This document shows positions 20,432 through 64,000 of a stretch of 64,000 nucleotides of DNA, piece by piece (position 1 is the first letter of the stretch; each line of letters starts with the position of its first letter). The notes beneath the pieces are model-generated. The model worked only from the letters and a program-made list of their open reading frames with translations. It was not told the origin of the DNA and ran no database searches. The stretch covers positions 2,604,001-2,668,000 of the forward strand of contig NC_089435.1 in assembly GCF_026210795.1 (NCBI RefSeq). The letters are read 5' to 3'. The stretch comes from Rhizophagus irregularis. Lineage: Eukaryota. Both the position numbers and the translations under genes were made by a program.

Positions 20432-23138
20432 TAGGGATGGTAAATTACTGTAATTTATGAAATTTATTGTTACGTTACGGTGATTTTCTATAAGTTACGT
20501 TACGTTACACTATTTTATTGTAACATTCAATTTGATATAAATTAAAGATGATCAAAGATAATCAATTTTTAAAAAAATGCTGAAACAAAGATATTCTTTC
20601 TGGTCAGAGTTTGAAGAAACAATAGATTCCAATGAAAAAAATGATATAAATGCATATATTGTAATTCTAAATGGGCAAAAAACGCGACAAGATTACAAGA
20701 ACATCTTAATACTTGTCTTGCAAGGAAAATTACAATGGAATCCATCGTATCTGAACCTGAACCTACTGTAAACCAAACTAATAAACGTAAACAAGCTACT
20801 TTAAATCACTATATACCTTCTTTTACAAAACAAGATCAGGAAGAATTAGAATCATTATTAGTTCGTGCATTTTGCAGTACTGGAATTCCTTTTAATGTAA
20901 TAGAAAATGTTGATTTTCAAGCATTTTTACAAAAGCATGTTTTTCATTTCACATTCCATCACATCACACATTATCTGGTAATTTACTAAATAAAGAATAT
21001 AAAGATTTGAAAAAATTAGTCCGAAATTTTTTTAATGAAACACCATATTTTTGTATAACTAGTGATGGATGGTCAAATGTAAATAAAGCTCCAATAGTTA
21101 ATTTCATGATAACCACTCAAAAACCTATTTTTTATAAATCAGTATATACAAAAGAAGAGCATCATACTGGGGAAAATATAGCCAAAGGTATAGAAGAATG
21201 TGTGATATCAATTGGAATTGACAAATTTACGGCTGTAATAACTGATAATGCTAATAATATGAAATCAGCATGGAGAATACTTAAAGAAAAGTATGCTGAT
21301 AAGATTTTTCTTGGATGTTGGGCACATGGAATTAATTTGTGGGTAAAAGATATAATGAAACACAAATGGGCTAATGATATCTTAGAAAAAGCGAAACGAT
21401 TGGCTTTATATTTTCGTAATCACCAAATTCCATTAGCTACACTTCGGAGAATACAAAAAGAAAAGTATGGATATTAAGTTGCTTTAACATTAACTGTTGA
21501 AACAAGATGGATGTCAGTGTTTGAGTGTTTAGATCATATTTTGAAAACAAAAATTGCAATGAGAGCATTGTTGGCGGAAGAAAATATTATTTTAAATCAA
21601 GAAATTAAAAATTACATTATTGATGATTGTTTTTGGGAAGAACATAAAAATCTTCGTGATTTTTTGGAACTGTTTATAAATTTTATACGAAAATTAGAAG
21701 GAAACGAACCTTATCTTTCATCAGCTTTTGTTACATTACGAGATATTGAAATTATATATATATATTATAATCCTTTTATAATGTATTACATTAAACATAT
21801 GATTACATTTAACATCTATACGATAACATTTTATTAAATAATAAAATTCCAAATGATTTAGTTGAATATTCAATAGATAGAGCTAAATATCGGTGGGACA
21901 ACTTTTTATATAATCCTGCGGTTATTATTGCATATAGATTAGATCCTAGATTTAATGGAGAACTAGTAAATAGTGGTAATTGGCATGATATTATAGAAGA
22001 AGAAATTATACGTATTGCCGGAAAAGAGAATGAAGTTGGGTATTAATTGAATTAAGTGAATATATAGGAAGACACGGAGGATTTGCTAAAAAAATTTGTG
22101 GAGTGGTTTAAATCAAATGCCAATTAATTGGTGGAATTTATTAAAGTCAAGATACCCACTACTTAGTTCGGTTGCAATTAAAGTTTTATCAATTCCGGCT
22201 TCTTCAGCAGCAAGTGAAAGAAATTGGTCTACATATAATTTTAAATAGAATGGTTATTGATCGAGCAGAAAAATTAGTATATATATATTGGAATATTAGA
22301 ATTCTTCGAGAATTGGAAGTGCCACTTACGGTCAAAGAATTAATTAAAAGTGGCGTGAAAATGAGTGATTTAGAATCAGATGACGAAAAGTTAGGTGAAG
22401 AATCAGATAAAGAACTGGAAGGTGACATTGATAGCAATTTCGAAACTTTAACAGAATATGAAGAAAATGAGTTTGATTTAGATTTAGATGATTGATATGT
22501 ATTTCTTACGATTTAAAAATAAATGATTATGCAATCAGCGGTTCGTTGCCATTTCTATAAATTTAAAGAAAAACGTTAGTACTGTTTTATAGTACTGTTT
22601 TATTAAGTAAATGCTGACGTTCCCTCATACTCACTCATTTTGCCTTTTAAACAGTTTCCCAAAGCTCTGTTTTCCTACGAATAGAAGAAGAATATTACTA
22701 ATGGTTCATTAAGTAAATGCTGACGTTCTTCCTCATACTACTAACCCATTTCGTCTTTTAATTAGTTTTCTAAAACTCCGTTTCCAACAAAATTTAAAAA
22801 ATATTAGAACTGTTTCAGCTCTTTAAGTAAATTCTAGTGTTCCTTCTTGGTCTTACAAATAGTTTCTCTATTCCGATCCCATTAAAAAAAAAAAAATTTT
22901 TATTAATCGGTCACACCAAAAAAATAATTATGTAATTAAACTGCGCCCAATTTTTTTTTTATGCAAATCTTTCATATAAATTATATAACTCGGCCAAAAT
23001 TAGTTTTTAACTGAGTAATGCTGGCCGAATCAGCTTAATTCTGGTAAACATATAGATGTAATGTTACATCAAGTCTATGTAACTTACAACGTAAGTTAAA
23101 TAATGTAATGTAACGTAACGTAACATTTAGCATCCCTA
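20432..23138 (+). mobile_element. Full-length defective hAT DNA transposon (2707 bp)
   Basis: TIR TAGGGATGGTAAAT / ATTTAGCATCCCTA (13 of 14 match), exact 8-bp TSD TTTAGAAT (20424-31 and 23139-46), GTTAC/GTAAC subterminal repeats, and an internal transposase remnant. Confidence 0.95.
20577..22495 (+). pseudogene. hAT transposase pseudogene (BED finger, DDE core, C-terminal dimerisation region)
   Basis: Fragments WSEF...CIYC...HL (BED), ITSDGWSN, VITDNANNM, CWAHGINL, ETRWMS and SIPASSAASERNWS are split by frameshifts and stops. Confidence 0.9.
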
Positions 23139-29786: not shown

Positions 29787-30051
29787 TAGGGATGGCAACG
29801 GTTATAATCATAACCGTTTAACCGACCGTTTAACCACATTTAACTGACCGTTTGACCGACCATTTAAACATTTGACCGACCATTTTTAACCGTTTAACCG
29901 ACCATTTGACTAATTATTTAAGTAAAATAGTATAACCGACCGTTTAACCGACCGTTTAACCGATTTTTAACCGACCATAACCGACTGTTTAAATTTCTAT
30001 AACTGATTATAACCGACCATAACCGACCATAACCGACCGTTGCCATCCCTA
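29787..30051 (+). mobile_element. hAT MITE with TAACCGACC repeats (copy 1)
   Basis: TIR TAGGGATGGCAACGG / CCGTTGCCATCCCTA with an exact 8-bp TSD TTGCCTAT. Confidence 0.95.
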
Positions 30052-32090: not shown

Positions 32091-34695
32091 GATCATCGCT
32101 CAATCAATTTCCTTTTTTATGAAGTTAATTACCTAATGTTTTTAGATCAAATCATCACGATAGACTCCGCGTACCTTCTTGAATACAAAAAAATTAAAGA
32201 ACAACTCCAAAACAAGAAAGGTAGAATGCCTAGATGGTATAAATTCTTACAAGATCATATTACGCTTACCAACGATGGTCGACTTAACTTCATCATCAAC
32301 ACGCCTTTAATACAAAACCCCATGATTACGTGACCTGCTTTACCACGTTAATCATGAACCGCAACATATGAAAGGAAAACCTAAATGGGTTACCGCTTGG
32401 GTTCCTAATATTACCGATATAGTGTATGGAAAAATATTGAGTATCACACATTATCCTAATTATTCTACACCAGTCTCTTATCCAGAACATTGGAAATATC
32501 AAAATGTTTCCTCGAATCCTCAACCAAGAACACCTTGTTCCCAAACTATAACCATCGTTCCATGCCAAGGTTGTTCCCAGCATTTTAGTTACTATGTTGG
32601 AAATCTAAAACCAAAATGTATTATTCAAATCAAGCACCTTGACTTAATCGTTGTAGACACGCTCACTAAAAAGAAAAACAACTGGCAGTCCCTGCTCCTA
32701 CACAGAGACATAATACTGTACCTTTAATGTACTCAAATATAGTCATCCACATCATCGTCTTTTAGCGTATATTGATCATCTTATCCAACATGGTCATATT
32801 CCTTCGATGAATTTTACACCATGCGCTCCTCCTTCTTTGGATACTCGTATACCACCTAACCATAAATTGGTTTCTCAACTTGTCGATAATGACAATGTAG
32901 TGAAAGATTTACAGAATTTATCTAACGTTCTGGCTCCTTTTATAGAATTAGAAATTTATACTGATGGAGCTTATGATTGCGAATTTGCTCAAAATGAATT
33001 TCCTATGGGCTATGGTTGGACTACAGCTAACCTCACTAATATGAACATTGCATACAATGGTTCATTAGAATACTTCTCCTCGTCAACTAAAGCGGAAACT
33101 ATGGCAATTTTAACGGCCTTAATTGTTTGTCCACCTAATGGAGTGATCAATATATACACAGATTCACAGGCTGCTATTGATTCCGTCTTTCTACAAATCT
33201 AAATACCTCAATTCTATTTCTCCTAGAAGATTCAATAAAATCAACAACAACATTTTATGGTCGTCTATTCACCATACATCAAAACCTTATCCTTTGAACA
33301 TCAGATTACATACCTTCAATGATATCAGCAAAAGTAGGTCATTTACACCTTCGTTTACACCTGTATTCAACTAAGATTAAACATGAACATCTTCCAACGC
33401 AAACGCTCACATTATTATGGAACGTGGAGATACCTTTAGACAAGGACGTGCGAAAGTGTATTGGCACGATCTCAAATTACAAACCATATCAACCACCCTT
33501 CGTTATTGGAAATAAAAAATGCAACAAAAAATAATTTAATAAATTGGTTGTTTACCTCCAAATGGTTTAATTTTAACAGGCGCGAAGATACAACTAGTCC
33601 TCAACATACCAAAGACACCAAATGGAAAATTTGATGCTCAACTTTAACTCTTCCTACTTTGGATATAATGAACCGTAACTACCCAGCCCTTTGAATAATA
33701 ACGTTCAATGTTTACTTTGTAACAAGCAAGCAGAAACAAATAATCATTTTTAGTTATGTCCTGACCTCAAAGAAACTATAAAAGACGTCTTCATACGACT
33801 TGGAAATCAACTTATTAATTTGATACGACAACATACTGATAAACATTCACTCATTATATCAGATTCCGTTAAATACTCACCAACATTTCGTTGGGCATTC
33901 CGAAATGAACCTAGCTATACACCCGGTGGCAGATCATATATTACTAATGATCTTGTCAGCATCTGTAACCATTTTAATACCATCAAAACTATATTAAAAA
34001 GACTCCTCCCCTTCGTCCATGATTGTAGCAATACCTTTAAGACAGAAATTTGGAAAAAATGTAACGACAAATGGAAAATCATGCGTTCTGATATGGGCCT
34101 TTCAAAAAGGAGTTTCAAAAACTACCATAAAGACTTCCCTCGTTCCAATAATAACTAGAATATGCGATTTGCTGGGGGACTTCGTCCCCCAAATATAACA
34201 TTTATAATTAAAAAAATTCTTTGATATAAATAAATTGAATTGTTACTGAATAATAAAATTTTATTATAATTAGACCCTATAAAAAATCATGTTTTAATAA
34301 GATTTATACAATTTTTTCTTAAAAATAATGTATCTAAACTATATATAAGGATATAGGAAAATGCACAATTCCATATCACAAAAATGCACCATTTGTATGA
34401 TTGACCATAATTTATACTGAATTTATATTGATTTGATCAAAGAAATTACATAATTTGAGCATAGAATTTACAAGAATTGGTCAATGAATTTACTGCTTAA
34501 ATTATAATTATTAATATTAGTTGCATTTATATGAATTTAATTTTAAATAATAATATTTTATTAAATTATTAAATCAAATAGTATCATGTGATTATAATTA
34601 GCCAATAATATAAATTAATTTTTATAATTTAAAATAATGACATAAGCTGTAATAAGTGTTCTAAAGTTAATACAGCTACAAAAAAATGAAATCTT

Positions 34696-47727: not shown

Positions 47728-50700
47728 CTATTTTAATAAAAAATTTAAACCTTTTTCAGCCTCTTGGCATCCATTTTCTGCAGCTTTTTTGTACCAATAA
47801 ATAGCATTCTCAATATTTTTTTCGGCTCCTTCTCCTCGTTCGTATAAAGATGCTAGGCTATATTGTGCATCAACATTTCCTCTCTCTGCAGCCATCTTAA
47901 AGTAATTAAATGCCTTTTCTTTATCAATATCAATCTGAGTTCCATAATTATAAATATACCCAACTTTATATTGAGCATCTATATATCCTTGATCTGCTGA
48001 TTTCATATAGAATTCAAATGCACGTCTTTCATTTTTATCAACACCTTTATCTAATTCATAAAATTCACCTAGTTTATATAATGCAAGTTTATTATCATTT
48101 TCGGCAGCTTTATGATACCAATAATTAACCTTGTCTAAATCATTTACTAGTTCTTCATCACTTTCAATAAGGTTAATTCGGATATTAGTGCCAGCTGCCT
48201 CATTATATAATTCAAATCCTTTTTCTTTATTAATTTCAGTTCCAATACCATTTATATAACAATATCCAAGTTGAAATTTTGCACTAATGTCTCCATTTTC
48301 GGCCGATTTTTCATAAAATTCAAATGCTTTTGATTTATTAATTTCAGTTCCAATTCCTTCTTCATAATAATATCCAAGTTGATACTGAGCATTTATATAA
48401 TCTTTTTCTGCTAAATCTTTCATTAATTCAAATGCTTTTAATTTATTGATTTCAGTTCCAATTCCTTTACTGTAGTAATAGGCAAGTTTGTATTGAGCAA
48501 TTATATTATCTTTTTCTGCTAAATCTTTCATTAATTCAAATGCTTTTGATTTATTGATTTCAGTTCCAATTCCTTCTTCATAATAATATCCAAGTTGATA
48601 CTGAGCATTTATATAATCTTTTTCTGCTAAATCTTTTATTAATTCAAATGCTTTTAATTTATTGATTTCAGTTCCAATTCCTTTACTGTAGTAATAAGCA
48701 AGTTTGTATTGAGCATTTATATTATCTTTTTCTGCTAAATCTTTCATTAATTCAAATGCTTTTGATTTATTGATTTCAGTTCCAATTCCTTCTTCATAAT
48801 AATATCCAAGTTGATACTGAGCATTTATATAATCTTTTTCTGCTAAATCTTTTATTAATTCAAATGCTTTTAATTTATTGATTTCAGTTCCAATTCCTTT
48901 ACTGTAGTAATAAGCAAGTTTGTATTGAGCATTTATATTATCTTTTTCTGCTAAATCTTTTATTAATTCAAATGCTTTTAATTTATTGATTTCAGTTCCA
49001 ATTCCTTTACTGTAGTAATAAGCAAGTTTGTATTGAGCATTTATATTATCTTTTTCTGCTAAATCTTTCATTAATTCAAATGCTTTTGATTTATTGATTT
49101 CAGTTCCAATTCCTTCTTCATAATAATATCCAAGTTGGAATTGAGCATCTACATCATCTTTTTCTGCTAAATCTTTCATTAATTTGAATGCTTTTGATTT
49201 ATTGATTTCAGTTCCAATTCCTTTACTGTAGTAATAAGCAAGTTTGTATTGAGCATTTATATATTCTTTTTCTGCTAAATCTTTCATTAATTCAAATGCT
49301 TTTTTATCATCTTTATTAACTCCCTCCCCATATTGATATAATATAGCTAAATCAAATTGTGCAATAGTAACTCCTTTTTTAGCAGCTATATTATATAATT
49401 CAAATGCTTTTGATTTATTAATTTCAGTTCCAATTCCCTTATTATAATAACATCCAAGTTGATATTGAGCATTTAAATCATTATTTTCTGCTAAATCTTT
49501 TATAAGTTCAAATGCTTTTTTATCATCTTTATTAACTCCCTTCCCATATTGATATAATATAGCTAAATCAAATTGTGCAATAGTAATTCCTTTTTTAGCA
49601 GCTATATTATATAATTCAAATGCTTTTGATTTATTAATTTCAGTTCCAATTCCTTTATCATAGTAACAACCAAGTTGATATTGAGCATCTACATCATCTT
49701 TTTCTGCTAAATCTTTCATCAATTTAAATGCTTTTGATTCATTGATTTCAGTTCCAATTCCTTCACTATAGTAATAAGCAAGTAGAAATTGAGCATCTAC
49801 ATCATCTTTTTTTGCTAAATCTTTCATTAATTTAAATGCTTTTGATTTATTGATTTCAGTTCCAATTCCTTTTTCATAATAATATCCAAGTTGGAGTTGA
49901 GCATCTACATCATCTTTTTCTGCTAAATCTTTCATTATTTCAAATGCTTTTGATTTATTGATTTCAGTTCCAATTCCTTCTTTATAATAATATCCAAGTT
50001 GGAATTGAGCATCTACATAATCTTTTTCTGCTAAATCTTTCATTAATTCAAATGCTTTTGATTTATTGATTTCAGTTCCAATTCCTTCTTCATAATAATA
50101 TCCAAGTTGGAATTGAGCATCTACATCATCTTTTTCTGCTAAATCTTTCATTAATTCAAATGCTTTTGATTTATTGATTTCAGTTCCAATTCCTTCTTCA
50201 TAATAATATCCAAGTTGGAATTGAGCATCTACATCATCTTTTTCTGCTAAATCTTTCATTAATTCAAATGCTTTTGATTTATTGATTTCAGTTCCAATTC
50301 CTTCTTTATAATAATATTCAAGTTGGAATTGAGCATCTACATCATCTTTTTCTGCTAAATCTTTCATTAATTCAAATGCTTTCTTCTCATCTTTAGTAAC
50401 TCCTTCTCCAAATTGATATAATATAGCTAAATTAAATCGTGCTTCATTGCTCCCCTTTTCAGATACTTTTTTACATAATTCAAATGCTTTTACTTTATTA
50501 ATTTCAGTTCCAATTCCTTTATTATAGTAGTAAGCAAGCTTATAATTTGCATCTAAATCTCCTTTTTCTGCTAATTTTTTAATTATTTCAAATGCCTTTT
50601 CTTCATTTTTATCAACTCCTTCTCCTAATTCATACAGAAAACTCAAATTAAATTGTGCTTCACTATTTCCTTTTTCTGCTGCTACTTTGTATAATTCAAA

Positions 50701-53172
50701 TGCTTTTACTTTATTAATATCAATTCCAATTCCTTCATCATAACAATAACCAAGTTGAAATTTTGCATTTATATTTCCTTGTTCAGCTAAAAGTTTATGG
50801 AATTCAAAAGCATTTCTCCCATCTCTTCTTACACCTTTATTTTTTTTATAATGACTAATCCAATCAAATGGTAACCCTTCATTTTCATTTTCTGCCACTA
50901 TTCGAACTTTGCTAAAAATATTATCTTGATTATTTTTCGTAAATTTAGTTATAAAGTTCCTGAAACCTTTAAAACTTGGTCTTTTTTGAAATTTAATTTC
51001 TTTAATATTACTTATTTTTAACTTTTGCCTTTTATTATAGTACTTTAAAAGATTATCGTTTGCAATAATATTTCCATTGTTTGTTGCTTTTTCATACCAA
51101 CATTTAGCTTGTATTTTATCTATTCTTGTTCCAATCCCATTATAATAACAATTTCCCAGTTGACATTGAGCATCTGAAATTTCTTGTTTAGCCAAAATTT
51201 CATAATATTTAAATGCTTTAATTTCATCTTTTTCGACTCCTTTTCCTAACCTAAAACAGTTTGCAAGATAAAGTTTTGCACTTTTATTTCCGCTTTTAGC
51301 TGCTTTTTTATACCAATGTACTGATTTTATAATATCTTTTGCAGTTCCAATGCCAAATTCATAACAATTTCCTAAATAGAATTGTCCAATAATACTGTCA
51401 TTCTTTGCAGATTTTTGATACCAATTAAATGTCAAGTTTTTATTACTCTCAATTCCAAATCCATGATAATAACATTTTCCAAGATAAACTTGTGCAGTCA
51501 AATAATTGTCTTCAGATGCTTTTAAGAATAATTTGAATGCTTTTGTACTATTTTCCTCTGTACCAATATTATAATAATAAAGTAGTCCAAGTAAATAAAT
51601 ATATTGTGGATTTACTTGTTTAGTTAGCCATTTAACGAGATTATCTGAACTTTGATTCAATTCTAATATTTGCTGATTGATAAATCGTTGAAAATCTTGA
51701 AAATTAATACTTTCCTTATCATGTTTCCTATTTATAACCTTAATTAACTTTTGAACAATTATATTATTAGTCTTATCAAATGTTGACCCATATGAAATTT
51801 TTGACATATTTGTTTGAATTGATGTACTTGATAAATTATTTTCACAACTTATATTTAATCCAGTATATGATATCAATTCATTATTTAAATCCACGGTTTC
51901 GATTGATTTAGAAGTCGTTTCACATTTTTCCAGTTGATTATTTTCTTTTTCTTTATTAACATTAACAGTATTAATTATACCTTCTTGTTTGGGAAATATT
52001 ATTTCATAAAGGATAGAAACGACATTCTGTATATTTGGACGTTCATCCGGATCATCTTTCCAACATTCTAGTTAAATAAATTACATTACTAAACTTTCGA
52101 TCAATGAATTAATAAAATTAAAATATTAAAAATATTAATTACCTGTATATAAATTACTATATTCTATAGGAGTATTATCAATAGTTTTTTCTCGTTTTCC
52201 ATTTACTATGGACAAGGACAAACTTACGTCATAATCATAATCAGAAAATGGTTGACGGCCACTTGAAATTTGCCACATCAAAACTCCGATGCTGTATACA
52301 TCAGATTTCTTGTTTAATTTGTAACCTTGTTCATATAACTTTTTCGGATCAATAAAAGGTATTACGCCAAGTATTTTTGATGTATTGCTTGATGCTTCAG
52401 AAATTTTTTTTGATAAACCAAAGTCTGTTAACTTTATCTTTTTCTGATGTACTAGTATATTATCTCCATGCTATAATAATAAATGGAATTTTATTAAAAC
52501 GAATATAATAAATTAATCTATTATCAAATTACAAAATTAATTCATTATTACCAGATCACGATGAATTATATTACAATCATGTAAACATTCTACCGCATTT
52601 GCTAGTTGAAATGCCAACTGATATTTATCAATCCAATTAAGTTCATTACAATGCTTATTTAAATAACTTTTTAGTGTACCATTGTCGGCATATTCCAAGA
52701 CTAACGAATATTTTTCTGGATAAAAAAAAGAGAGTATTTTAAACCAAATTATTATTGTAGCACATGCTAGAACTTGAAACTTACCAGTTTCCACTTTCGT
52801 GATGCCGTAAAACCGTATAATATTTTCATGATAATCAACTCTTTTTTGTAATTTTATCTGGAAAAGAAAACCATATTTTAATTTTAATATTTGAAATTTA
52901 TAACAAAGTTAATTGAGATTAATTACCTCATTAACAAGTTCTTTTAACATTATATTGTCATAATATTTAAAAGTTTTTAAAGCAAAAAAAATTCCAGCAT
53001 TTTTCCAATTAGCACGAACGACATTTCCATGTGAACCATTTCCTATAGATTCTAAATTTTTAAATTCAGAATATTCATAATAATTGAGATATTCATTTGC
53101 AATCGATTTTTCTAACCACTTGATATAATAATTTGGTTCTTTAGGGTCAGTCTCTTTCGTTTCTTTTGACAT
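47728..53172 (-). CDS. TKL-type protein kinase fused to ~32 SEL1-like repeats, 5 exons
   Basis: MSKETK... at 53172; [74 protein letters not shown]. The last exon runs in frame into the 1388-aa SEL1 ORF ([25 protein letters not shown]...). Confidence 0.92.
48200..50780 (-). repeat. 108-bp (36-aa) coding tandem array of highly similar SEL1 units
   Basis: TTCAGTTCCAATTCC and CTTTTTCTGCTAAATCTTT recur with a 108-bp period. About 24 contiguous units, several nearly identical. Confidence 0.95.
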
Positions 53173-54004
53173 TCTCAATAAATTGTTTATCGATTTTAAC
53201 GATAATTGAAACCTTATAGTACTTCCTTATCTGCTTAATTAAATATGAGAGCAAAGGAGTAATGTTTTACTTTAAAAAAAAACTTTTTATACGATAAAAT
53301 GGGTATAACGATATCAAAAGAAAGGTTTCCCAGTTAGAAAAATTCGGCGAAAAGTCTATAAAAGACCAAACCAAATAAGAGAAATGGGACTAGATAGACG
53401 AGACGAACTAGATAGATGAGACTAACTAGTAGATAGATGAGACGAAACAAAAAAAAGCCAGAAGAACAAAACAAGTTTTGAAAACAAATATGACCAAGAA
53501 ATAAGGAAATATAAAAGAGAAATTAAAGCGTTATGGAATTCAGCAGATTTTGAAACTACACATACAGAAGAATACTAATCAAAGTAACAAAATCTATAAA
53601 AAATAATAATATCTTCAGATGCATCGGGCAGCATCGCGGACATCACGCGCTTTCAAACAAAAATGGAAAAAATGTAGATCGCAATGTACCAATGAAGAAT
53701 AGTCCTCATGGAAGTCTAGACGATTCGATTCATTGTGCAAGAGGTCGATCAGAAACAAAGAAAAGATTTTACGTAGGCAGGGATCATGTGTTACAGTATA
53801 CCAAGCATAGAAGGGCAAGACGATAGGAAAAATAGGAAACTTAATTTTATTTCGAAAAAGCGAAAGAATATAATATAGAGTGTGTACAGTCAAATCCTGT
53901 TATAACCTAAACCTGATCTACTGTACAATAGTATCGATGATAGAGTTGCGGTATACTTCTTGATATTATGTATTATTTTATTATTGATATACCAAGACTA
54001 TCCC

Positions 54005-54769: not shown

Positions 54770-55502
54770 TAGTGCTCCGTACGGGTCGGATCAGACCCGG
54801 GTGATCGACCCGACTCGAATTTTGAATCTTGATATTACTAAACCAACAAATCAACTCGGAAAAAATAAAGATGCAAATACGCATCAGGAAGTCATGTGTC
54901 TTAACTGTTCGTAAGTAAAAGTTTTTATTGTATTTAATTTAAAATATATATTTAATATTATTTCATAATTCTTTTTAAAACTCTAGAGTTAATAAGACTT
55001 GGTTACGGAAAATTGATGACTCCAATACGTCCAAGGTTATCTGATAAATAAGCTTATTGTATGCAATTATTGATAATATTATTGAACAAGTGTTCCAGTA
55101 GAACGAATTTTTTCTGGTGGAGCTGATCTACTGGCAACAAAATGATGCAGCCTTAAAACACAAACTGTTCGTGCATGTATGAGTTTGGAATCTTGGTAAG
55201 TGTGAAAAATCAAAGAAATTTAAACTGAATTTTATATTAATTAATAAATAAACATTATTACAATAAAAATTGTAAAATTTTTCGTAAAAAAATTGCGTAA
55301 CTTGATGATTAACTTAGCTGATCATAAATTTAATATAAATTCGAATTTGATCCGGGTTATCCGGGTTAAACTATGATCGGGCCGAGTCAAGTTCGGGTTA
55401 CACGGTTGATCGATCTCAATTTTCAAGTCGAATCACATGAATATTCGAATCGAATTCAAATATCCCTTAAACCCGACCCAACCCGACCCGTTAGGAGCAC
55501 TA
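54770..55502 (+). mobile_element. Internally deleted hAT element (TAGTGCTCC family)
   Basis: Termini TAGTGCTCC / GGAGCACTA, GACCCG subterminal repeats, and the dimerisation-domain remnant SVPVERIFSGGADLL...TVRACMSLESW. Flanks GCCATAAATT / GCCATAAT form an imperfect TSD. Confidence 0.8.
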
Positions 55503-57780: not shown

Positions 57781-58348
57781 AAAGAAAATAAATATTAACT
57801 AATATTAATATATATACAATTTTTTATTTATTTATGGAAAAGATAATTCCAACAAGACATGCTATTTATTGATTTCTGATCGCACGACTTCATATTTTAT
57901 TCAATAAAAAAATAATTTTTTTTTCTCCATCATATTAAACGTATGGGGGGACAAGGGCAGTTCCCACTAGAGGAGTACGCCTCCCAGAGTGCCTTCTTGC
58001 TATATTACTTTGTATTCTTTTTTTATTCCTTGCACCTCTAGCTCATTAAAATTACTAATTTGTTTTCCTGCCTAGCTGGAGACTCCGCAATCTCAGAAAT
58101 ACTAATTTGTAATCTTACTTAGCTAAACTCTTTGGAATTGTATAAATACTAATTTGATATTTTATTTAGCACTGGTTTTTTGAAAGCAAATAAGCTTACT
58201 GTATGCGGAACGAAGTGGAGCGGTAAGCAAATTGTAAATACAATAAGTGGGCAAATAGTGTTTGCAGTTTGCGGAGCGAAGCGGAGCATGTACGCAAGAT
58301 ATGGTATACAAATTGCCTCCCAATAGCATACTGCTTAGGTAGCAAGAG

Positions 58349-58626
58349 TAGGGATGGCAACGGTCGGTTATGGTCGGTTGTGGTCGGTTATAATCAGTTA
58401 TAGAAATTTAAACAGTCGGTTATGGTCGGTTAAAAAATTGGTTAAACAGTCAGTTAAACGGTCGGTTAAACGGTCGGTTATACCATTTTACTTAAATAAT
58501 TAGTCAAATGGTCGGTTAAACGGTTAAAAATGGTCGGTCAAATGTTTAAATGGTCGGTTAAACGGTCAGTTAAATGTGGTTAAATGGTCGGTTAAACGGT
58601 TATGATTATAACCGTTGCCATCCCTA
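58349..58626 (-). mobile_element. hAT MITE (copy 2, inverted relative to 29787-30051)
   Basis: TIR TAGGGATGGCAACGG / CCGTTGCCATCCCTA with an exact 8-bp TSD AGCAAGAG. Nearly the reverse complement of copy 1. Confidence 0.95.
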
Positions 58627-59126
58627 AGCAAGAGAGAACAAGCATGAGGAGGAGCAGAGCGACGACGAATGCGCATTCGATATAGGAGAATAAGTATGAG
58701 TAGGCAAAGCCCTTTAGGGCGACGCCTATGAATACGCATTCGACGGGAGGGGATAATAGCAGGAATATGAGCAAAGCCCTTTAGGGCGAAGCGAATATGG
58801 ATGCTATTATCTCCGACCCATATGCTACCTATTCTAATGTATGCTATATATGAGGCAAATATGAATGCCAATGTTGCGGAGCGAAGCGGAGTATGTAACC
58901 AAACTATAAAGCAAATCGTGAAAGCATATAAGATCACTCATGTTTCTAACCGGCAAGACAACAATGTCTGCTGGCCAATGTTGCAGAGCAAAGTGTGTAG
59001 ACCTAGACCCATATCTGCGCCATTAGGCACGTTTAGTGAATTGTCGGGCGGGGTAGGTGGCCGGAGACAGTATTAGAAAAAATCTATTGTTCTTGAATAT
59101 CAAAAAAACATATTTATAAAAGACTT

Positions 59127-59510
59127 CTATTGCCTAGAAGCTGTAATATAGAATCTTGCCTCGGCTTTTTTCATCATTGGGCCACCAGGTCTATATAGCC
59201 AGTTTCGGACATATTCTTGGATTACCCGGGATGCTTGATCACGTTTTTTGTCCTGAAGTTCTTGGATTGCCTGGGATATTTGACCCCATTTTTTGAGCTG
59301 AAGTTTGATTTTATAATAATTAGCTTTACTATAATACTTTCCAGCATGTTTGGTGCACATTCCATAAGAAGAAGCCGTTAGTATGCCACAATCACCACAA
59401 GGAATACGAGTTCGTCTTTTCCAATGAATATGGCATCCTTCTTTCCGGTAACATTTTTTTTCACATACACGACCATCAATATAGGTGTATGGACAAGAAT
59501 AAAATGCCAT
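59127..59510 (-). CDS. Small Cys/His-rich (putative Zn-finger) accessory protein with an IQ-like C-terminal motif
   Basis: CPYTYIDGRVCEKKCYRKEGCHIH and CGDC...MCTKH, then ASRVIQEYVRNWLYRPGGP. Intact ATG-to-stop ORF without introns. Confidence 0.7.
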   Translation of the reverse strand: MAFYSCPYTYIDGRVCEKKCYRKEGCHIHWKRRTRIPCGDCGILTASSYGMCTKHAGKYYSKANYYKIKLQLKKWGQISQAIQELQDKKRDQASRVIQEYVRNWLYRPGGPMMKKAEARFYITASRQ

Positions 59511-59561
59511 GTCTTTCTGTTATTTTACAAATTAAATATTTTCTGAGGTTATTAAAACGAG

Positions 59562-59987
59562 ATGACATCTAATATTATGGATTCAGATAAAAGAATGGAA
59601 TCTTTATCTCAAGTGATGCCAGAAGGGCCAGCAAAAAAAGTGGAGAAAGTATTGCTAGAAGTATTGGAAACGGCAATATGCCAGAAATTTAAAGAGAATA
59701 GTAAATTTGTTAAAGATCATCTTAGCTCTGTAAAAAAATTGTGATTGGCAGAAAATCCTGATGGATATGCTAGGTATCTTGCAAGAAAACAAGTTCCAGA
59801 TGAATTATCATATAATACAGGAATAGAGAAAGTTCAAACATGGTATCGGGGGGAACTGCGTACTAAACTAGAGAAATTATATAGCCTTTATTATAAAATA
59901 TCTTAGGAAGAAAAATGTGAAATATCCAAAGAGAATGCGAAAGGAATTATTCAAGGACTTCTTAACATGTCACTTACAGATGATTAA
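59562..59987 (+). pseudogene. Accessory ORF (~141 codons) with two in-frame stops
   Basis: The frame continues past TGA 59742-44 (LAENPDGYARYLARKQ...WYRGELRTKLEKLYSLYYKIS) and one TAG to TAA 59985-87. Confidence 0.6.
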
Positions 59988-60009
59988 ATATGCAAATCTG
60001 ATAACTTTC

Positions 60010-61110
60010 TTAACTTGTTAGCACCCACTGGGGTGGCAATTCAGTATCATGAGGAATTACTAGCAATTCTTCACGTACAAATGATCGTTCAGGACTATTG
60101 CCTTCATTATTTATAAGCCAATAAAGAACTGGCTGATTTTTTTGTACTAGTAATTTTTTAATATGGTAAACTTGTGGAGACCAATTTTTATCAGTTGCAC
60201 GTCGTTTACTATCTCCTTCTAACTCGCCAGGTTCAAGCAAATATCTTATTAAAACATCATAAGTTAATCGCGGTTCATCATAGCCCATAGGCCCTTCTCG
60301 AGTTTTAGAAGACTGGGAAATGACCTGCTTCTTTTTTATTGCCATAGCTGGAGATAGATCTATAAGTCGGGTTATAGAATTATTAATATCTTCTACAATT
60401 ATAGGCAGATTCTTTACCCAAGCCTGAAATTTTTCAGATAAATGCAATGTTAATAAGTCATGCGCATCCTGCATACGAAATAATCTCTTAGATAAAGTCT
60501 TGTTATAACTTTCAACAATACCCATAGTACGCTTAGACTTGGCCTTCTGAATTTTTACATTATGCTCTCTCATTAATTTCTCACAATCGCCTCTAAACTC
60601 TGGACCCTTATCTGTTAAAAATGTTTTCGGCCAAATAAGAGGGCACTCAGGGTCATCATATTTCTCCTTAAGCGCTCTAGCAATAGTCTTTGAAGTTAAG
60701 ATCCCTTGCCTATCCCTGACACTATATGCACCTATAGGGACAGAAACTTTATATCTCGAAGCTACGTCCACAATATTAAGGCAAAAAAGATATGTAATCC
60801 GACCTATCTTATCATAGGGCATATAGAGAACATCCGCCTGGTGTACTTCATTGGGTATAGTGATAGAGCAAAAACTTGCTCAAGGAATATATCTAGGACG
60901 AGGTTTATGTATTTGGTGTATAGCCTGTCTTTCGAGCCAATCCCTCACTTCGTCTAGACTAAAATCATACCCAGCTTTTTGAGAGGTCTCAAACAATTTT
61001 TTCGCATTTCTCTGATAGCCAGCAGGCTGGTAGTAAATTTTTTGCAAAGTAGTAGTTACATCAAGTTCGTCTCTTCTAGAGGTATTTATCTGTATTATAG
61101 GAATCAACAT
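60010..61110 (-). pseudogene. DDE (rve) integrase of Polinton/Maverick type with one in-frame TGA
   Basis: ORFs 60880-61110 and 60010-60822 share a frame. LQKIYYQP...KLF...EVRDWLERQAIHQIHKP, HQADVLYM (D), IVDVASRY, LTDKGPEF (D), GIVESYNKTL (E), NWSPQVYHI...P.LY.L...SFVREELL. Confidence 0.88.
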
Positions 61111-63136
61111 GGATCAAGCATATATAGAAATCCTAGATACTAATAAAGAGTTGCGCAAAGAATTGGAGGATGAAATAGGCGAAAACAAACTTAAGAATAA
61201 AAAGCTAAAAGCCCTTTCAAGGGAGCTAGAAGCCTGTTATAGGACATTATCTCACCAGGATTCAACAATCTTAGCTCATGAAGACGAGATAGCATCTCTT
61301 AAGTCCGAGATAAAATCTCTTAAACAGCGTCTCTACAAAGCATTGCAGGATTTAAGGCATAAAGATGATGCCAGCACAGCTCAGGATATCCATATTTTAA
61401 GGCTAGAAGACAAAGTCGATCAGCTTAAGAAGCGAATTAGGGAGATTACAGATAAAAAATTATCCCAAATTAATAATTCGCCAATGGCACTGCCAGATAT
61501 CTTAAGAAATATTGGTACAGCTTTAGATCGGGTTGAAAATTATATTGATGGGGTGGATACGACATTTAATCCAAAAAATACTCTGAATGGAATACGGATC
61601 TCATTAACAACTGTTCGTGGTCATATGCAAAGGCATGCTCAAGATGCTATTAACTTATAAGGCCAGCTTAATACTGCTCATAATTTGCTCAATAATGCTA
61701 ATGGGCAGATAAATAACTTTTTTAATGATATGGCAAATGTTAGAAATGAATGTCTTCGAAGAGCTCAATTATTAACTATAGCATATAATAATGAGGCAAA
61801 TGAGCGTCGCCGTTGGTGGCAAATAGCTCAGGAAAGGCAAACTAATGGTCAAAGAATGGCCTTTAGAAAGCAGAATCAGATTAATATATTAGTACGAGAG
61901 AAGGCAGTTCTCCAAATATTAGCTAGGAGGCGCAAAGCTGAGGCCGACTTGGCAGAATTCAATCGGGCATGGGTATTTAATAGATACCAAAAATGGAAGG
62001 CTAGGGAATTAAATTCACGACAAATTATTTTGAATTTACAAAACAACCCACTCGGAAACATGGCTACTATTCAAGATGTTATGCATACATTATCACCTTT
62101 ACTTGCACAATTACCCAGTTATGATGGGCAGGAACCACCAGATGTATATTATCAAAGGCTTAGAAATATAAATGAGACAGCACGTCCCTTAGCTGTTGTT
62201 GGTTTTAATCCTGGTGTAAGATGTCAAGTTATGATAAATAAGATGACAGGTAGATTTGCACCTGTTCCTGCTAATGATCCATATGCCGGAGGTAATCCAG
62301 CTATTGTTACTGAACCTCTCTTCCTAAACTGGTTGCGTGAAAGATATAGAGAAGTTATGGTAGGGACTAACCGAAGTGCTATATTTGCTCTTGTAAATGA
62401 AAAATTCTTTGAAACAGATACCCCAGATAGTTATGAAAAACGAATTAAACCACTAGTACAAGCAATGCAAGATGCTGATGCCTTACCTTATCTATTTAAT
62501 CATTTGCCTTCTGATTTAGAAATGAGAGTTAGAATTGCTACCCCTGCTACCGTCAATGCATTTTTTACAGACTTACGCAATATATGGCATGAAAGTGCAG
62601 GCAAAAGAATACAAGCTCCTGCACCAACCTCAGTTAGCTTTACTACTCAACCACAAAAAGATGATTTTAAAATTCGGTTAGCAAGAGATTTAGCTTATAC
62701 AGGAATAGGAATAAATGACGCTACATTAGAAAATTTTATTTACGAAGAACTTAAAAAGAGGTTAGGAGGCACAACTGCCCATGTTAGAAAAAGCCCTTTT
62801 ACGTCCAGAAGTGCTTATGCTACAAAGAAAGTTATTCGAAAGGTAGTGCCAAAAGCATCTGCAAAGCAAACTCGGCATTGCTCAGCATGTGGAAAGGCTG
62901 GTCATACAAAGGTTAATTGCCCCAAAGGCAAGCGGACTAAAAAAGTTAACTATGTATACCAAGATGAGGTAGAAGATCCTGAAGACTCCGAAGAATACAT
63001 AGTGGAGGAAGAAGTGGTGGAAGAAGAGGAAATAGAAGATGATGAAGAATATGATGAATATGTTGATAAAAATGATGACGAACCTCGAAATTGCTATGCA
63101 TCAAAAAAAAAGTGGTGCGAAGTGGAGTACCTATGA
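61109..63136 (+). pseudogene. Gag-like polyprotein: coiled coil, capsid-like region, CCHC knuckle and acidic tail, with one in-frame TAA
   Basis: ORFs 61109-61660 and 61685-63136 are in the same frame, separated only by TAA at 61658-60. Contains LPSYDGQEPPD.Y, the knuckle CSACGKAGHTKVNC (CX2CX4HX4C) and an E/D-rich tail. Confidence 0.8.
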
Positions 63137-63846
63137 AAAAGAGCGGGTCCCAGAAGGACCGTGCCAAGACGAAAGAAAGAGCAACCAAGAAGTCCCCTAC
63201 TTCCAAGTCTCATACTAGCAATATAGTTATGGCTGAAAATTATATGTTTCAAATAGCCTTAAAATCTACAATATCATCATTAGTCCCTCATTGTCCTAGA
63301 GAGATTCTTATAGAAATTTCGAAATTTATTAATATGATATTCACCAAAATAAAAGACCATTGCTTGAATACTGCTATGTCGAATGATACGGTTAAAAGAA
63401 GGGAATTAGCATGGGGAAATGTTATAAGTAAATTCGAAGACATCTTATTTCCACTATTGCAGGCAGTAAATAGTGAGCAGAAGCCTCTTTTACAAGTTCC
63501 AGATAATAATGAATCTATCCTGAATGCCCCCAGTCTTAAAGAAGATATAGTTATGGCTGATTCGACTAAAATTAAGGAAATTAATACTACATCCACTAGT
63601 CATGTTTTACCAGAGAACATCCGGCTAGAACATGCTATTAAGGCTTATGCATCGGCTCAAAAAAAAAATAGCCAAATATATTGGCCCAAGCCCTTAGAGA
63701 TAAATTTTTTACAAATAAAGGATGCTGACGACGTTGCAACCATCTCCTGTAAGGTGGGGAGCGTGACTATACCCTATGCAATGATTGATAGTGGATCAGG
63801 CTCGTCAATAGTCTCAGAAAATGTTGCAAAACATTTGGGTCTAAAA
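63091..63846 (+). CDS. Retropepsin-type aspartic protease ORF in the -1 frame relative to gag, cut by a hAT insertion
   Basis: ISCKVGSVTIPYAMIDSGSGSSIVSENVAKHLGLK contains the DSG motif. It overlaps the gag end across an A9 run (63103-63111). Confidence 0.8.
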
Positions 63847-64000
63847 TAGTGCTCCGAATAATCCGAGTTAACCCGGGTTATTTTGACCCGACTCGACTTT
63901 TAAATCGGGTCGATACTTGTAATTTTGAGTGACTCGTGACCCGCATGACCCGCATGACCCGACCCGACGGGTCGGGTCATATATTTCCTTGACCCGGGTT
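63847..64000. mobile_element. Terminus of another TAGTGCTCC-family hAT element, continuing past the window edge
   Basis: Begins TAGTGCTCCG, identical to 54770-54779, followed by dense GACCCG/CGGGTC subterminal repeats. Confidence 0.85.

Follow-up and report, generated by a model that had tools for sequence, protein, structure and literature searches.

Organization of the element at the end of the window

The window analysed here, a 64,000-nucleotide stretch of Rhizophagus irregularis DNA, ends inside a mobile element whose genes, non-coding end and nested insertions are listed in Table 1. The five open reading frames reported by a first-pass annotation of the same sequence are present in the order (-)(+)(-)(+)(+), and its spacing is exact: gaps of 51 bp (59510/59562) and 22 bp (59987/60010) flank ORF2, and the integrase and gag start codons overlap within a single CATG. 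The integrase is encoded by a separate gene, antisense to gag, and not inside pol. The proposed start of the element was correct to within 6 bp, in that 57945-57946 is where contigs of other copies in public runs depart from the window; contigs beginning at 57945/57946 are among the pieces listed for all four public runs, and loose ends of other-copy contigs at 57945 occur in two of the four. This left end starts with GGGGGG, unlike the usual AG of Polintons.

At 63847, where an interruption had been recorded, a MITE starting with TAGTGCTCC cuts the protease gene; it is related to a MITE at 54770-55502. The MITE nested in the left end, which we take to be hAT-like from the length of its target-site duplication, has a further copy at 29787-30051 (94% identical). 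The annotation did not record that the ORFs are not intact: with four premature stops and two MITE insertions, the window copy is dead.

Table 1. Features of the element in the window (positions within the 64,000-nucleotide stretch).
Feature	Position	Strand	Remarks
Left non-coding end of the element	57945..59126	.	Repeat boundary at 57945
Nested MITE	58349..58626	.	Ends TAGGGATGGC...GCCATCCCTA, 8-bp TSD AGCAAGAG; absent from the first-pass annotation
Small Cys/His-rich putative zinc-finger protein	59127..59510	-	Conserved terminal gene of the family
ORF2, conserved protein of ~140 aa	59562..59987	+	Tail-to-tail with integrase; two premature stops
Polinton-type rve (DDE) integrase, 366 codons	60010..61110	-	One premature TGA; Pfam rve, homologs, tree
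Gag, 675 codons	61109..63136	+	One premature TAA; AF2, CA fold, Atlas, dN<dS
A9 slippery run and hairpin	63103..63134	+	Likely -1 frameshift signal, gag to protease; conserved in L008 and L013
Linker domain and retropepsin-type aspartic protease	about 63103..63846	+	-1 frame relative to gag; cut by MITE
Start of second MITE (TAGTGCTCC...)	63847..64000	.	Interrupts protease; runs off the window

The element continues past the window end, and the window contains neither its right end nor a TSD for it. Neither a protein-primed PolB (pPolB) nor an A32 ATPase match was found within the 64 kb; no LTR-like direct repeat was seen in the part of the element that lies inside the window. The Cys/His-rich ORF gave no match in a Pfam search, and its homologs come after the integrase in 24 of 45 informative loci; ORF2 homologs adjoin the integrase in 29 of the 45.

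A Polinton-type integrase linked to gag

The window integrase retains D93, D167 and E200 and matches the Pfam rve model at an E-value of 4.5e-7, just under the curated cut-off. It has 598 homologs, the named ones all from Glomeromycotina, and the family ranges over Rhizophagus, Glomus, Diversispora, Gigaspora, Cetraspora, Acaulospora and Entrophospora. The earlier assignment to the Polinton type is borne out by the nearest non-fungal relatives (40-44% identity), which adjoin pPolB and A32 ATPase genes, and the lack of an N-terminal HHCC finger extends to the family, since none of 42 aligned integrases carries one. The integrase tree contained no Gypsy or Ginger rows. Comparison with PDB sequences was uninformative: the best E was 0.054, and retroviral integrases scored no better than 0.13.

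Recurrence of the divergent arrangement, for which the annotation had proposed a tblastn check, was found in 34 of 42 informative relatives, where gag lies head-to-head with the integrase; with the window gag as the sole tblastn query the figure was 31 of 80 loci. Both genes start within one CATG in 10 of the 13 cases shown. The locus tags of the integrase and gag homologs are consecutive in R. clarus (GBB93332/93333) and close together in R. irregularis (GET52948/52951), and integrase and gag distances are correlated across 20 elements (Mantel rho 0.49, p 0.002). One exception to the layout, L041, has the protease fused in frame to the integrase. At three loci (L004, L043 and L054), an A32 ATPase gene rather than gag lies upstream of the integrase; a 'GAG+' match in L004 was discounted as probably due to a coiled coil. 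Because the two ATPase-type loci present in the integrase tree nest among gag-bearing ones, gag is not universal in the family, and longer elements may contain both gag and the ATPase.

Gag, protease and the absence of reverse transcriptase

Gag consists, in order, of an N-terminal coiled coil, a two-lobed CA (about 62060-62610), a small helical domain, a CCHC knuckle and an acidic tail. The structure prediction that the annotation had suggested for comparison with retroviral CA yielded an AF2 model (pLDDT 90) that takes the retroviral/retrotransposon capsid fold. In a VIA structure comparison the top 29 rows were all retroviral, retrotransposon or Arc-type CA, led by the PEG10 CTD (Z 11.1, rmsd 2.2 over 82 residues) and including the Copia capsid (Z 10.4 over 153), where a Z below 13 for helical proteins is not decisive alone; Foldseek E-values of the CA match were weak, the best being 0.016. 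As modelled, gag has a true CA fold. Pfam did not recognise the window CA region and returned only Retrotrans_gag (E 0.021) for the gag of L030, and the comparison of gag with PDB sequences was uninformative. dN was below dS in 15 of 15 CA pairs and 10 of 10 protease pairs. Gene content and order, the CA fold and selection on gag and protease are treated below as observed.

The protease DSG motif (63787-63795) is intact, and full-length protease relatives match Asp_protease_2 and gag-asp_proteas; against PDB sequences only DDI1 was returned (E 0.4). The A9 run, its phase and the hairpin in the window are shared by L008 and L013, which among the relatives that have gag and protease are the closest. 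The step from gag to protease is into the -1 frame in five of eight sequences examined, and within the L030 family the phase varies (+1, -1 or in frame). Full-length protease models (P0123, P0125, P0126, P0127 and P0144) end about 120 aa past the catalytic DSG, and stops come after the protease in L013, L030 and L047. RT and RNase H matches were absent both from 31 long gag/protease homologs and from 102 aligned members. The question of an RT, which the annotation had left open, is therefore settled at the level of the family: RT is absent in the relatives, and the replicase is pPolB.

Polymerase and termini of the relatives

pPolB is present on nine gag-bearing loci. R. irregularis proteins match that of L037 at about 95% identity and that of L030 at 70-75%; the L030 pPolB is in addition 45-48% identical to PF03175 pPolBs. 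The pPolB ORFs of relatives contain polymerase motifs; a direct Pfam scan of these ORFs did not match DNA_pol_B_2, and comparison with PDB sequences was uninformative. In three annotated gene models, parts of pPolB are joined with gag or protease. L047 has about 1.2 kb of non-coding sequence between pPolB and the neighbouring ORF.

The L034 and L030 contigs overlap over 6013 bp at 99.9% and together give an element of about 11.24 kb, a composite of separate contigs, that encodes pPolB, integrase, gag and protease between inverted repeats of about 150 bp, the left end of L034 matching the right end of L030/L032 at 87% with a gap. It is distant from the window copy (integrase 47%, gag 23-35% identical). 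Neither RT nor A32 ATPase was matched in L030/L034, which leave no room for an RT; every ORF above 270 aa in the 11.2-kb element is assigned. For a 265-aa ORF, a single-sequence model was alpha/beta at low confidence (pLDDT 36), with no meaningful fold match, and PDB sequences were uninformative for it and for a marine 423-aa candidate capsid. A viral collection scanned with the integrase, the integrase alignment, pPolB, gag and the 265-aa ORF yielded no relatives. Against the 5'-AG termini and 6-bp TSD expected of Polintons, a candidate end reading CTACT occurs in five loci, of which L009 and L011 diverge directly after it, no locus spanning both flanks; no TIR partner for the window left end was found among 120 loci. 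The lack of RT, the pPolB and the terminal inverted repeats are likewise observations, made in relatives.

Discussion

What kind of element is this? The evidence favours, with reasonable though far from complete confidence, a decayed copy from a Glomeromycotina lineage of Polintons/Mavericks in which a conserved, integral Gag and aspartic protease likely replace the jelly-roll capsid and packaging ATPase. The hybrid character suggested by the first-pass annotation, retroelement particle genes joined to a Polinton-like integrase, stands; its suggestion of an unclassified family probably does not hold for the backbone, which is likely that of the published Glomus Polintons, and the Gag-protease module is the new part. 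No description of a Polinton-Gag hybrid was found in the literature searched, a search that did not extend to the two founding Polinton papers and Repbase.

The backbone probably falls within the Glomus Polinton/Maverick group, described in the literature as capsid-less. In the portions of the sources available to us, one Glomus Polinton (11954 bp) is listed without MCP, penton, ATPase or protease and another (11019 bp) with the ATPase only (PMC4028283, PMC7805220). These elements, P_Gi1.1 (Polinton-1_GI) and P_Gi1.2, share the host group and, at 11.0-12.0 kb, the approximate size of the 11.2-kb element (PMC4028283); they are given there as lacking a jelly-roll capsid and cysteine protease (PMC4028283, PMC7805220), as the L030-type element probably does, and, one having the ATPase and the other not, they parallel the two arrangements in the present family. 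Those portions mention neither Gag nor an aspartic protease, and identity with the window family is drawn from the descriptions. In animal-type Polintons/Mavericks (Polintoviricetes, with EndoVII-bearing pPolB), the rve integrase is 40-44% and pPolB 45-48% identical, and integrase and pPolB are arranged tail-to-tail, as they are in the L030 family. An A32 ATPase is part of these elements, which according to PMC4028283 also have MCP, penton and Ulp1 protease, in place of which Gag and retropepsin are found here.

A CA-CCHC Gag followed by a frameshifted aspartic protease is also the arrangement of Ty3/Gypsy and Ty1/Copia. LTR retrotransposons (Ty3/Gypsy, Ty1/Copia, BEL), however, have RT, RNase H, LTRs and an HHCC integrase inside pol on the gag strand, whereas the window family has none of these, its integrase being separate and antisense and the ends of its relatives inverted repeats. 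An ordinary LTR retrotransposon was rejected. To our knowledge, the Bidnaviridae lack an integrase. They show that a Polinton pPolB can go together with an unrelated capsid, but differ as ssDNA viruses with a parvovirus-derived capsid and no Gag (PMC11161782). Ginger/GingerRoot elements are TIR DNA elements with an rve-family integrase, as here, but are described in PMC6839031 without pPolB or Gag, and Ginger1 keeps the HHCC and GPY motifs. HHCC is absent here, and a Ginger element was rejected.

Might Gag instead have been captured as an accessory gene, with no part in packaging the DNA genome of such a hybrid? We regard this as unlikely, at perhaps one chance in a few. Elements of the family do capture cargo, such as an F-box gene, the domesticated CA proteins PEG10, Arc and Drt2 are among the nearest folds, CCHC knuckles usually bind RNA, and ATPase-type siblings without an adjacent gag exist. 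Against this, purifying selection has kept the coiled coil-CA-CCHC-frameshift-protease unit entire in elements whose integrases are 35-85% identical, whereas a restriction-type role usually needs CA only. Roles that could be named for such a Gag are binding of element mRNA, Arc-like action and interference with resident Ty3/Gypsy particles.

It is more improbable still that the window subfamily has lost pPolB and persists as an integrase-gag-protease element of about 7 kb, mobilised in trans by the pPolB of autonomous copies or the RT of LTR elements. The window and L008/L013 contain no pPolB, the latter contigs ending before any could appear; the window terminus differs from AG, and the layout from ORF2 through the zinc-finger gene to the end differs from that of the L030 family. 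Yet pPolB of one lineage occurs both in L007, whose integrase is 70% identical to that of the window, and in L047, which has the same gene order (L047 and L081 pPolB are 61% identical), and the part of the element in the window has no LTR-like direct repeat. Chance nesting of an LTR-retrotransposon fragment beside a Polinton integrase, conceivable in a region so full of nested insertions, is refuted by the conserved gag-integrase junction (recurrence in 34 of 42, common CATG start, correlated divergence) and by the lack of RT/RNase H in gag/protease homologs, and we give it hardly any weight.

If Gag and protease do replace the capsid, how might an intact copy propagate? By analogy with Polintons, pPolB would copy linear DNA from the inverted-repeat ends and the rve integrase would insert the product. 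By analogy with LTR elements, Gag would be produced in surplus, with a -1 frameshift on the A run giving a small amount of Gag-protease; Gag would co-assemble around the element nucleic acid through its CCHC knuckle, so that no packaging motor would be needed, and maturation of the particle would fall to the protease. The replicating element would be protected inside and would be carried, together with its integrase, from nucleus to nucleus in the coenocytic hyphae. The copy in the window is incapable of such a cycle. We advance only tentatively, as a possibility somewhat short of even, that the Glomeromycotina are host to a chimeric virus spanning two realms: a DNA replicon of Polinton descent, replicated by protein priming, with a retrotransposon Gag shell in place of jelly-roll capsid and motor, its DNA genome carried in retrovirus-like particles without reverse transcription.

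The Glomus Polintons are a standing example of Polintons without a detectable capsid (PMC7805220, PMC4028283). The Gag-protease module would account for this absence and turn it into a question open to experiment. Should Gag package the element, the retroviral CA fold would be functioning in a replicon that goes from DNA to DNA with no reverse transcriptase, and modules of two virus realms would have been combined. The element could also be a starting point for a gene-delivery tool. Because Mavericks have been reported to be recently active in R. irregularis, it could be a DNA route between nuclei in these fungi.

Results

The five ORFs recorded in the first-pass annotation were all reproduced in the window, on the strands given there and with gaps of 51 bp and 22 bp, and the DSG motif of the protease is intact. 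This copy carries premature stops in the integrase (one), gag (one) and ORF2 (two), and is interrupted by two MITEs, whose families have further copies in the window. Contigs of other copies, from four public runs, diverge from the window at 57945-57946, which places a repeat boundary there. Among the matches listed, all named homologs of the integrase and Gag are from Glomeromycotina, which makes a Rhizophagus-like member of that group the likely host. Elsewhere in the window lie two transposon fragments unrelated to the element and a host gene encoding a kinase, in which 36-aa repeats of Sel1-like type (108-bp period) form a long array.

Coordinates of the features discussed (positions in the window, or in the named metagenome contig)
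Feature	Position	Strand	Remarks
Integrase	61110-60010	minus	catalytic D93/D167/E200 intact
gag	61109-63136	plus	start in a CATG common with integrase
gag/integrase junction	61107-61112		divergent, no intergenic space, one CATG; also in homologs
Modelled part of Gag	62060-62770		
MITE	58349-58626		8-bp target duplication; inserted in window copy
Second MITE	from 63847		cuts protease of window copy
Further copies of the MITE families	29787-30051; 54770-55502		
Host kinase gene	47728-53226	minus	repeat array
Non-LTR retrotransposon fragment	32326-34158	minus	RNase H-bearing, by eye
hAT transposase fragment	20914-21477	minus	by eye
265-aa protein	L034:864-1658		cargo; two repeats
F-box protein	L034:2001-2621		cargo
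Divergent gag CA	L008:2170-2730		
A32 ATPase	L004:622-1554		upstream of integrase
Protease-integrase fusion	L041:3-1694		one strand
Integrase and pPolB	L085:9995-19130		tandemly duplicated in a Polinton-like element

Scanning of metagenomes yielded 454 confirmed relatives of the integrase, and the best 80 of these were used, comprising 65 fungal-type and 15 more distant loci; in an integrase tree of 67 rows, from which 14 short loci were omitted, the two groups separated with support of 100/100. The adjacency of gag and integrase noted at first pass recurs: the genes lie head-to-head in 34 of the 42 fungal-type loci with a complete integrase start and at least 200 bp upstream, a count that includes near-identical loci (L030/31/32/34/36; L053/55; L058/61) and uses a gag profile built from seven of those loci plus the window, with three matches weak. 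With the window gag as sole query, 31/80 loci matched. Upstream of the integrase in the remaining eight, we found an A32 ATPase (three), an in-frame fused protease (one) or no recognised gene (four). The gag and integrase starts share a single CATG at 10 of the 13 junctions shown, and each promoter must therefore sit inside the opposite gene. In L008, the CA of Gag is 38% identical to that of the window and the N-terminal part 89%, a sequence comparison that suggests recombination within gag and is one sign of module exchange. dN was lower than dS in 15/15 CA, 10/10 protease and 10/10 gag N-terminal pairs, with dS near saturation in many.

Nine gag-bearing loci encode a large family B polymerase, which received no family name in a direct Pfam scan; it has exonuclease and polymerase motifs and an EndoVII insert, and its Atlas neighbours carry PF03175. 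The pPolB of L030 shares 70-75% identity with R. irregularis proteins and 45-48% with animal-type Polinton pPolBs, and the polymerase of L037 is ~95% identical to R. irregularis proteins. As to the RT, on which the first-pass annotation had left the question open, RT/RNase H was matched by 0/31 long homologs. Judged by sequence, the replicase of the gag-bearing family is a pPolB and not an RT. Contigs L034 and L030 overlap by 6013 bp (99.9% identity), and ~150 bp at the left end of L034 recur as an inverted repeat at the right-hand ends of L030 and L032. Combined, the contigs cover ~11.24 kb and encode in order a 218-aa ORF, a 265-aa ORF, a short ORF, an F-box gene, protease, gag, integrase and pPolB; this composite, pieced together from separate contigs, is distantly related to the window copy. 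Every ORF of >270 aa was assigned, and neither ATPase nor RT was matched anywhere within this composite. The two repeats of the 265-aa protein look TBP-like by eye; the protein itself found no match in Pfam, PDB or fold tests.

The AlphaFold2 model of Gag (102-row alignment) had a mean pLDDT of 90. In a wide structural search, the top 29 rows were all CA of retroviral, retrotransposon or Arc type, covering both lobes; the top Foldseek ranks were MLV, HIV and Copia CA, with weak E-values, and the Atlas clusters returned were Retrotrans_gag/Ty3_capsid/CCHC (0.93-0.95). By its predicted fold, Gag is a capsid protein. A CCHC knuckle follows CA, and an A9 run stands immediately before the gag end, with the protease read on in the -1 frame. 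This phase was found in five of eight sequences; the other three belong to the L030 family, in which the run length is variable. The run is followed by a hairpin in the window (z -3.3), L008 (-1.5) and L013 (-2.2); none was found in the L030 family or L047. Full-length protease models stop ~120 aa beyond the catalytic motif.

Three loci (L004, L043 and L054) carry the A32 packaging ATPase where others have gag, and no capsid gene was seen in these short contigs. In L041, on a long branch of the integrase tree, an aspartic protease is in frame with the same Polinton-type integrase, resembling a pol gene without RT. The 15 distant loci resemble Polintons and encode pPolB, an A32 ATPase and a conserved ORF of 420-450 aa. 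Some fungal-type and Polinton-like integrase/pPolB contigs (L081, L082, L083-L090) are filed under MAGs of archaea and bacteria, for which binning contamination is the most likely cause.

Discussion

How might such an element work? Gene content, fold, selection and ends are established at the family level, where the findings are those of a Polinton and not of an LTR retrotransposon. We consider it very probable that Gag-protease is an integral module of this Polinton-type element. By analogy with Polintons, the element would be copied by protein priming and then integrated; by analogy with LTR elements, Gag would assemble, with frameshifting and protease maturation.

Gag, known here from sequences and models, is probably a replacement capsid. 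This reading is favoured because the entire particle module is conserved, and because the sole complete gag-bearing element has no packaging ATPase, which co-assembly of Gag would spare it; the Polintoviricetes, in contrast, possess that ATPase. A non-packaging role for Gag is unlikely but deserves weight: RNA is the usual ligand of CCHC knuckles, and ATPase-bearing siblings are nested among gag-bearing loci in the integrase tree, both of which count against a capsid role. It is rather improbable that the window's subfamily is non-autonomous and without pPolB: the composite is a distant relative, but closer ones bear pPolB, namely L007 (integrase 70% identical to the window's) and L047, which has the window gene order with pPolB beyond the protease after 1.2 kb of non-coding DNA. 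Chance nesting of gag beside the integrase is scarcely credible beside the recurrent layout and the correlation of integrase and gag N-terminal identities across 20 elements (rho 0.49, p 0.002).

In the sections of the literature retrieved, P_Gi1.1/Polinton-1_GI (11954 bp) lacks MCP, penton, ATPase and protease, and P_Gi1.2 (11019 bp) has the ATPase only (PMC4028283), a published Glomus form that L004, L043 and L054 match. Excerpts of other reports state that MCP was never found in the Glomus element (PMC7805220), that Maverick is among recently active elements (bioRxiv 10.1101/2021.03.30.436303), and that A32 ATPases occur in Glomus and Rhizophagus, with 'gag' not mentioned in the part available (bioRxiv 10.64898/2026.06.19.733378). 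A Gag-Polinton hybrid is likewise absent from the accessible portions of PMC11296320, PMC6431247, PMC6839031, PMC5751038, 10.1101/2025.06.16.659975 and PMC10748475. No description of a Gag-bearing Polinton was found in the literature searched, itself partial; an earlier mention is possible in Kapitonov and Jurka 2006, Pritham 2007 or Repbase. The consulted part of PMC11161782 offers bidnaviruses as a precedent for capsid replacement.

The hybrid is real, conserved and surprising, and it works like a Polinton that carries the particle module of a retrotransposon.
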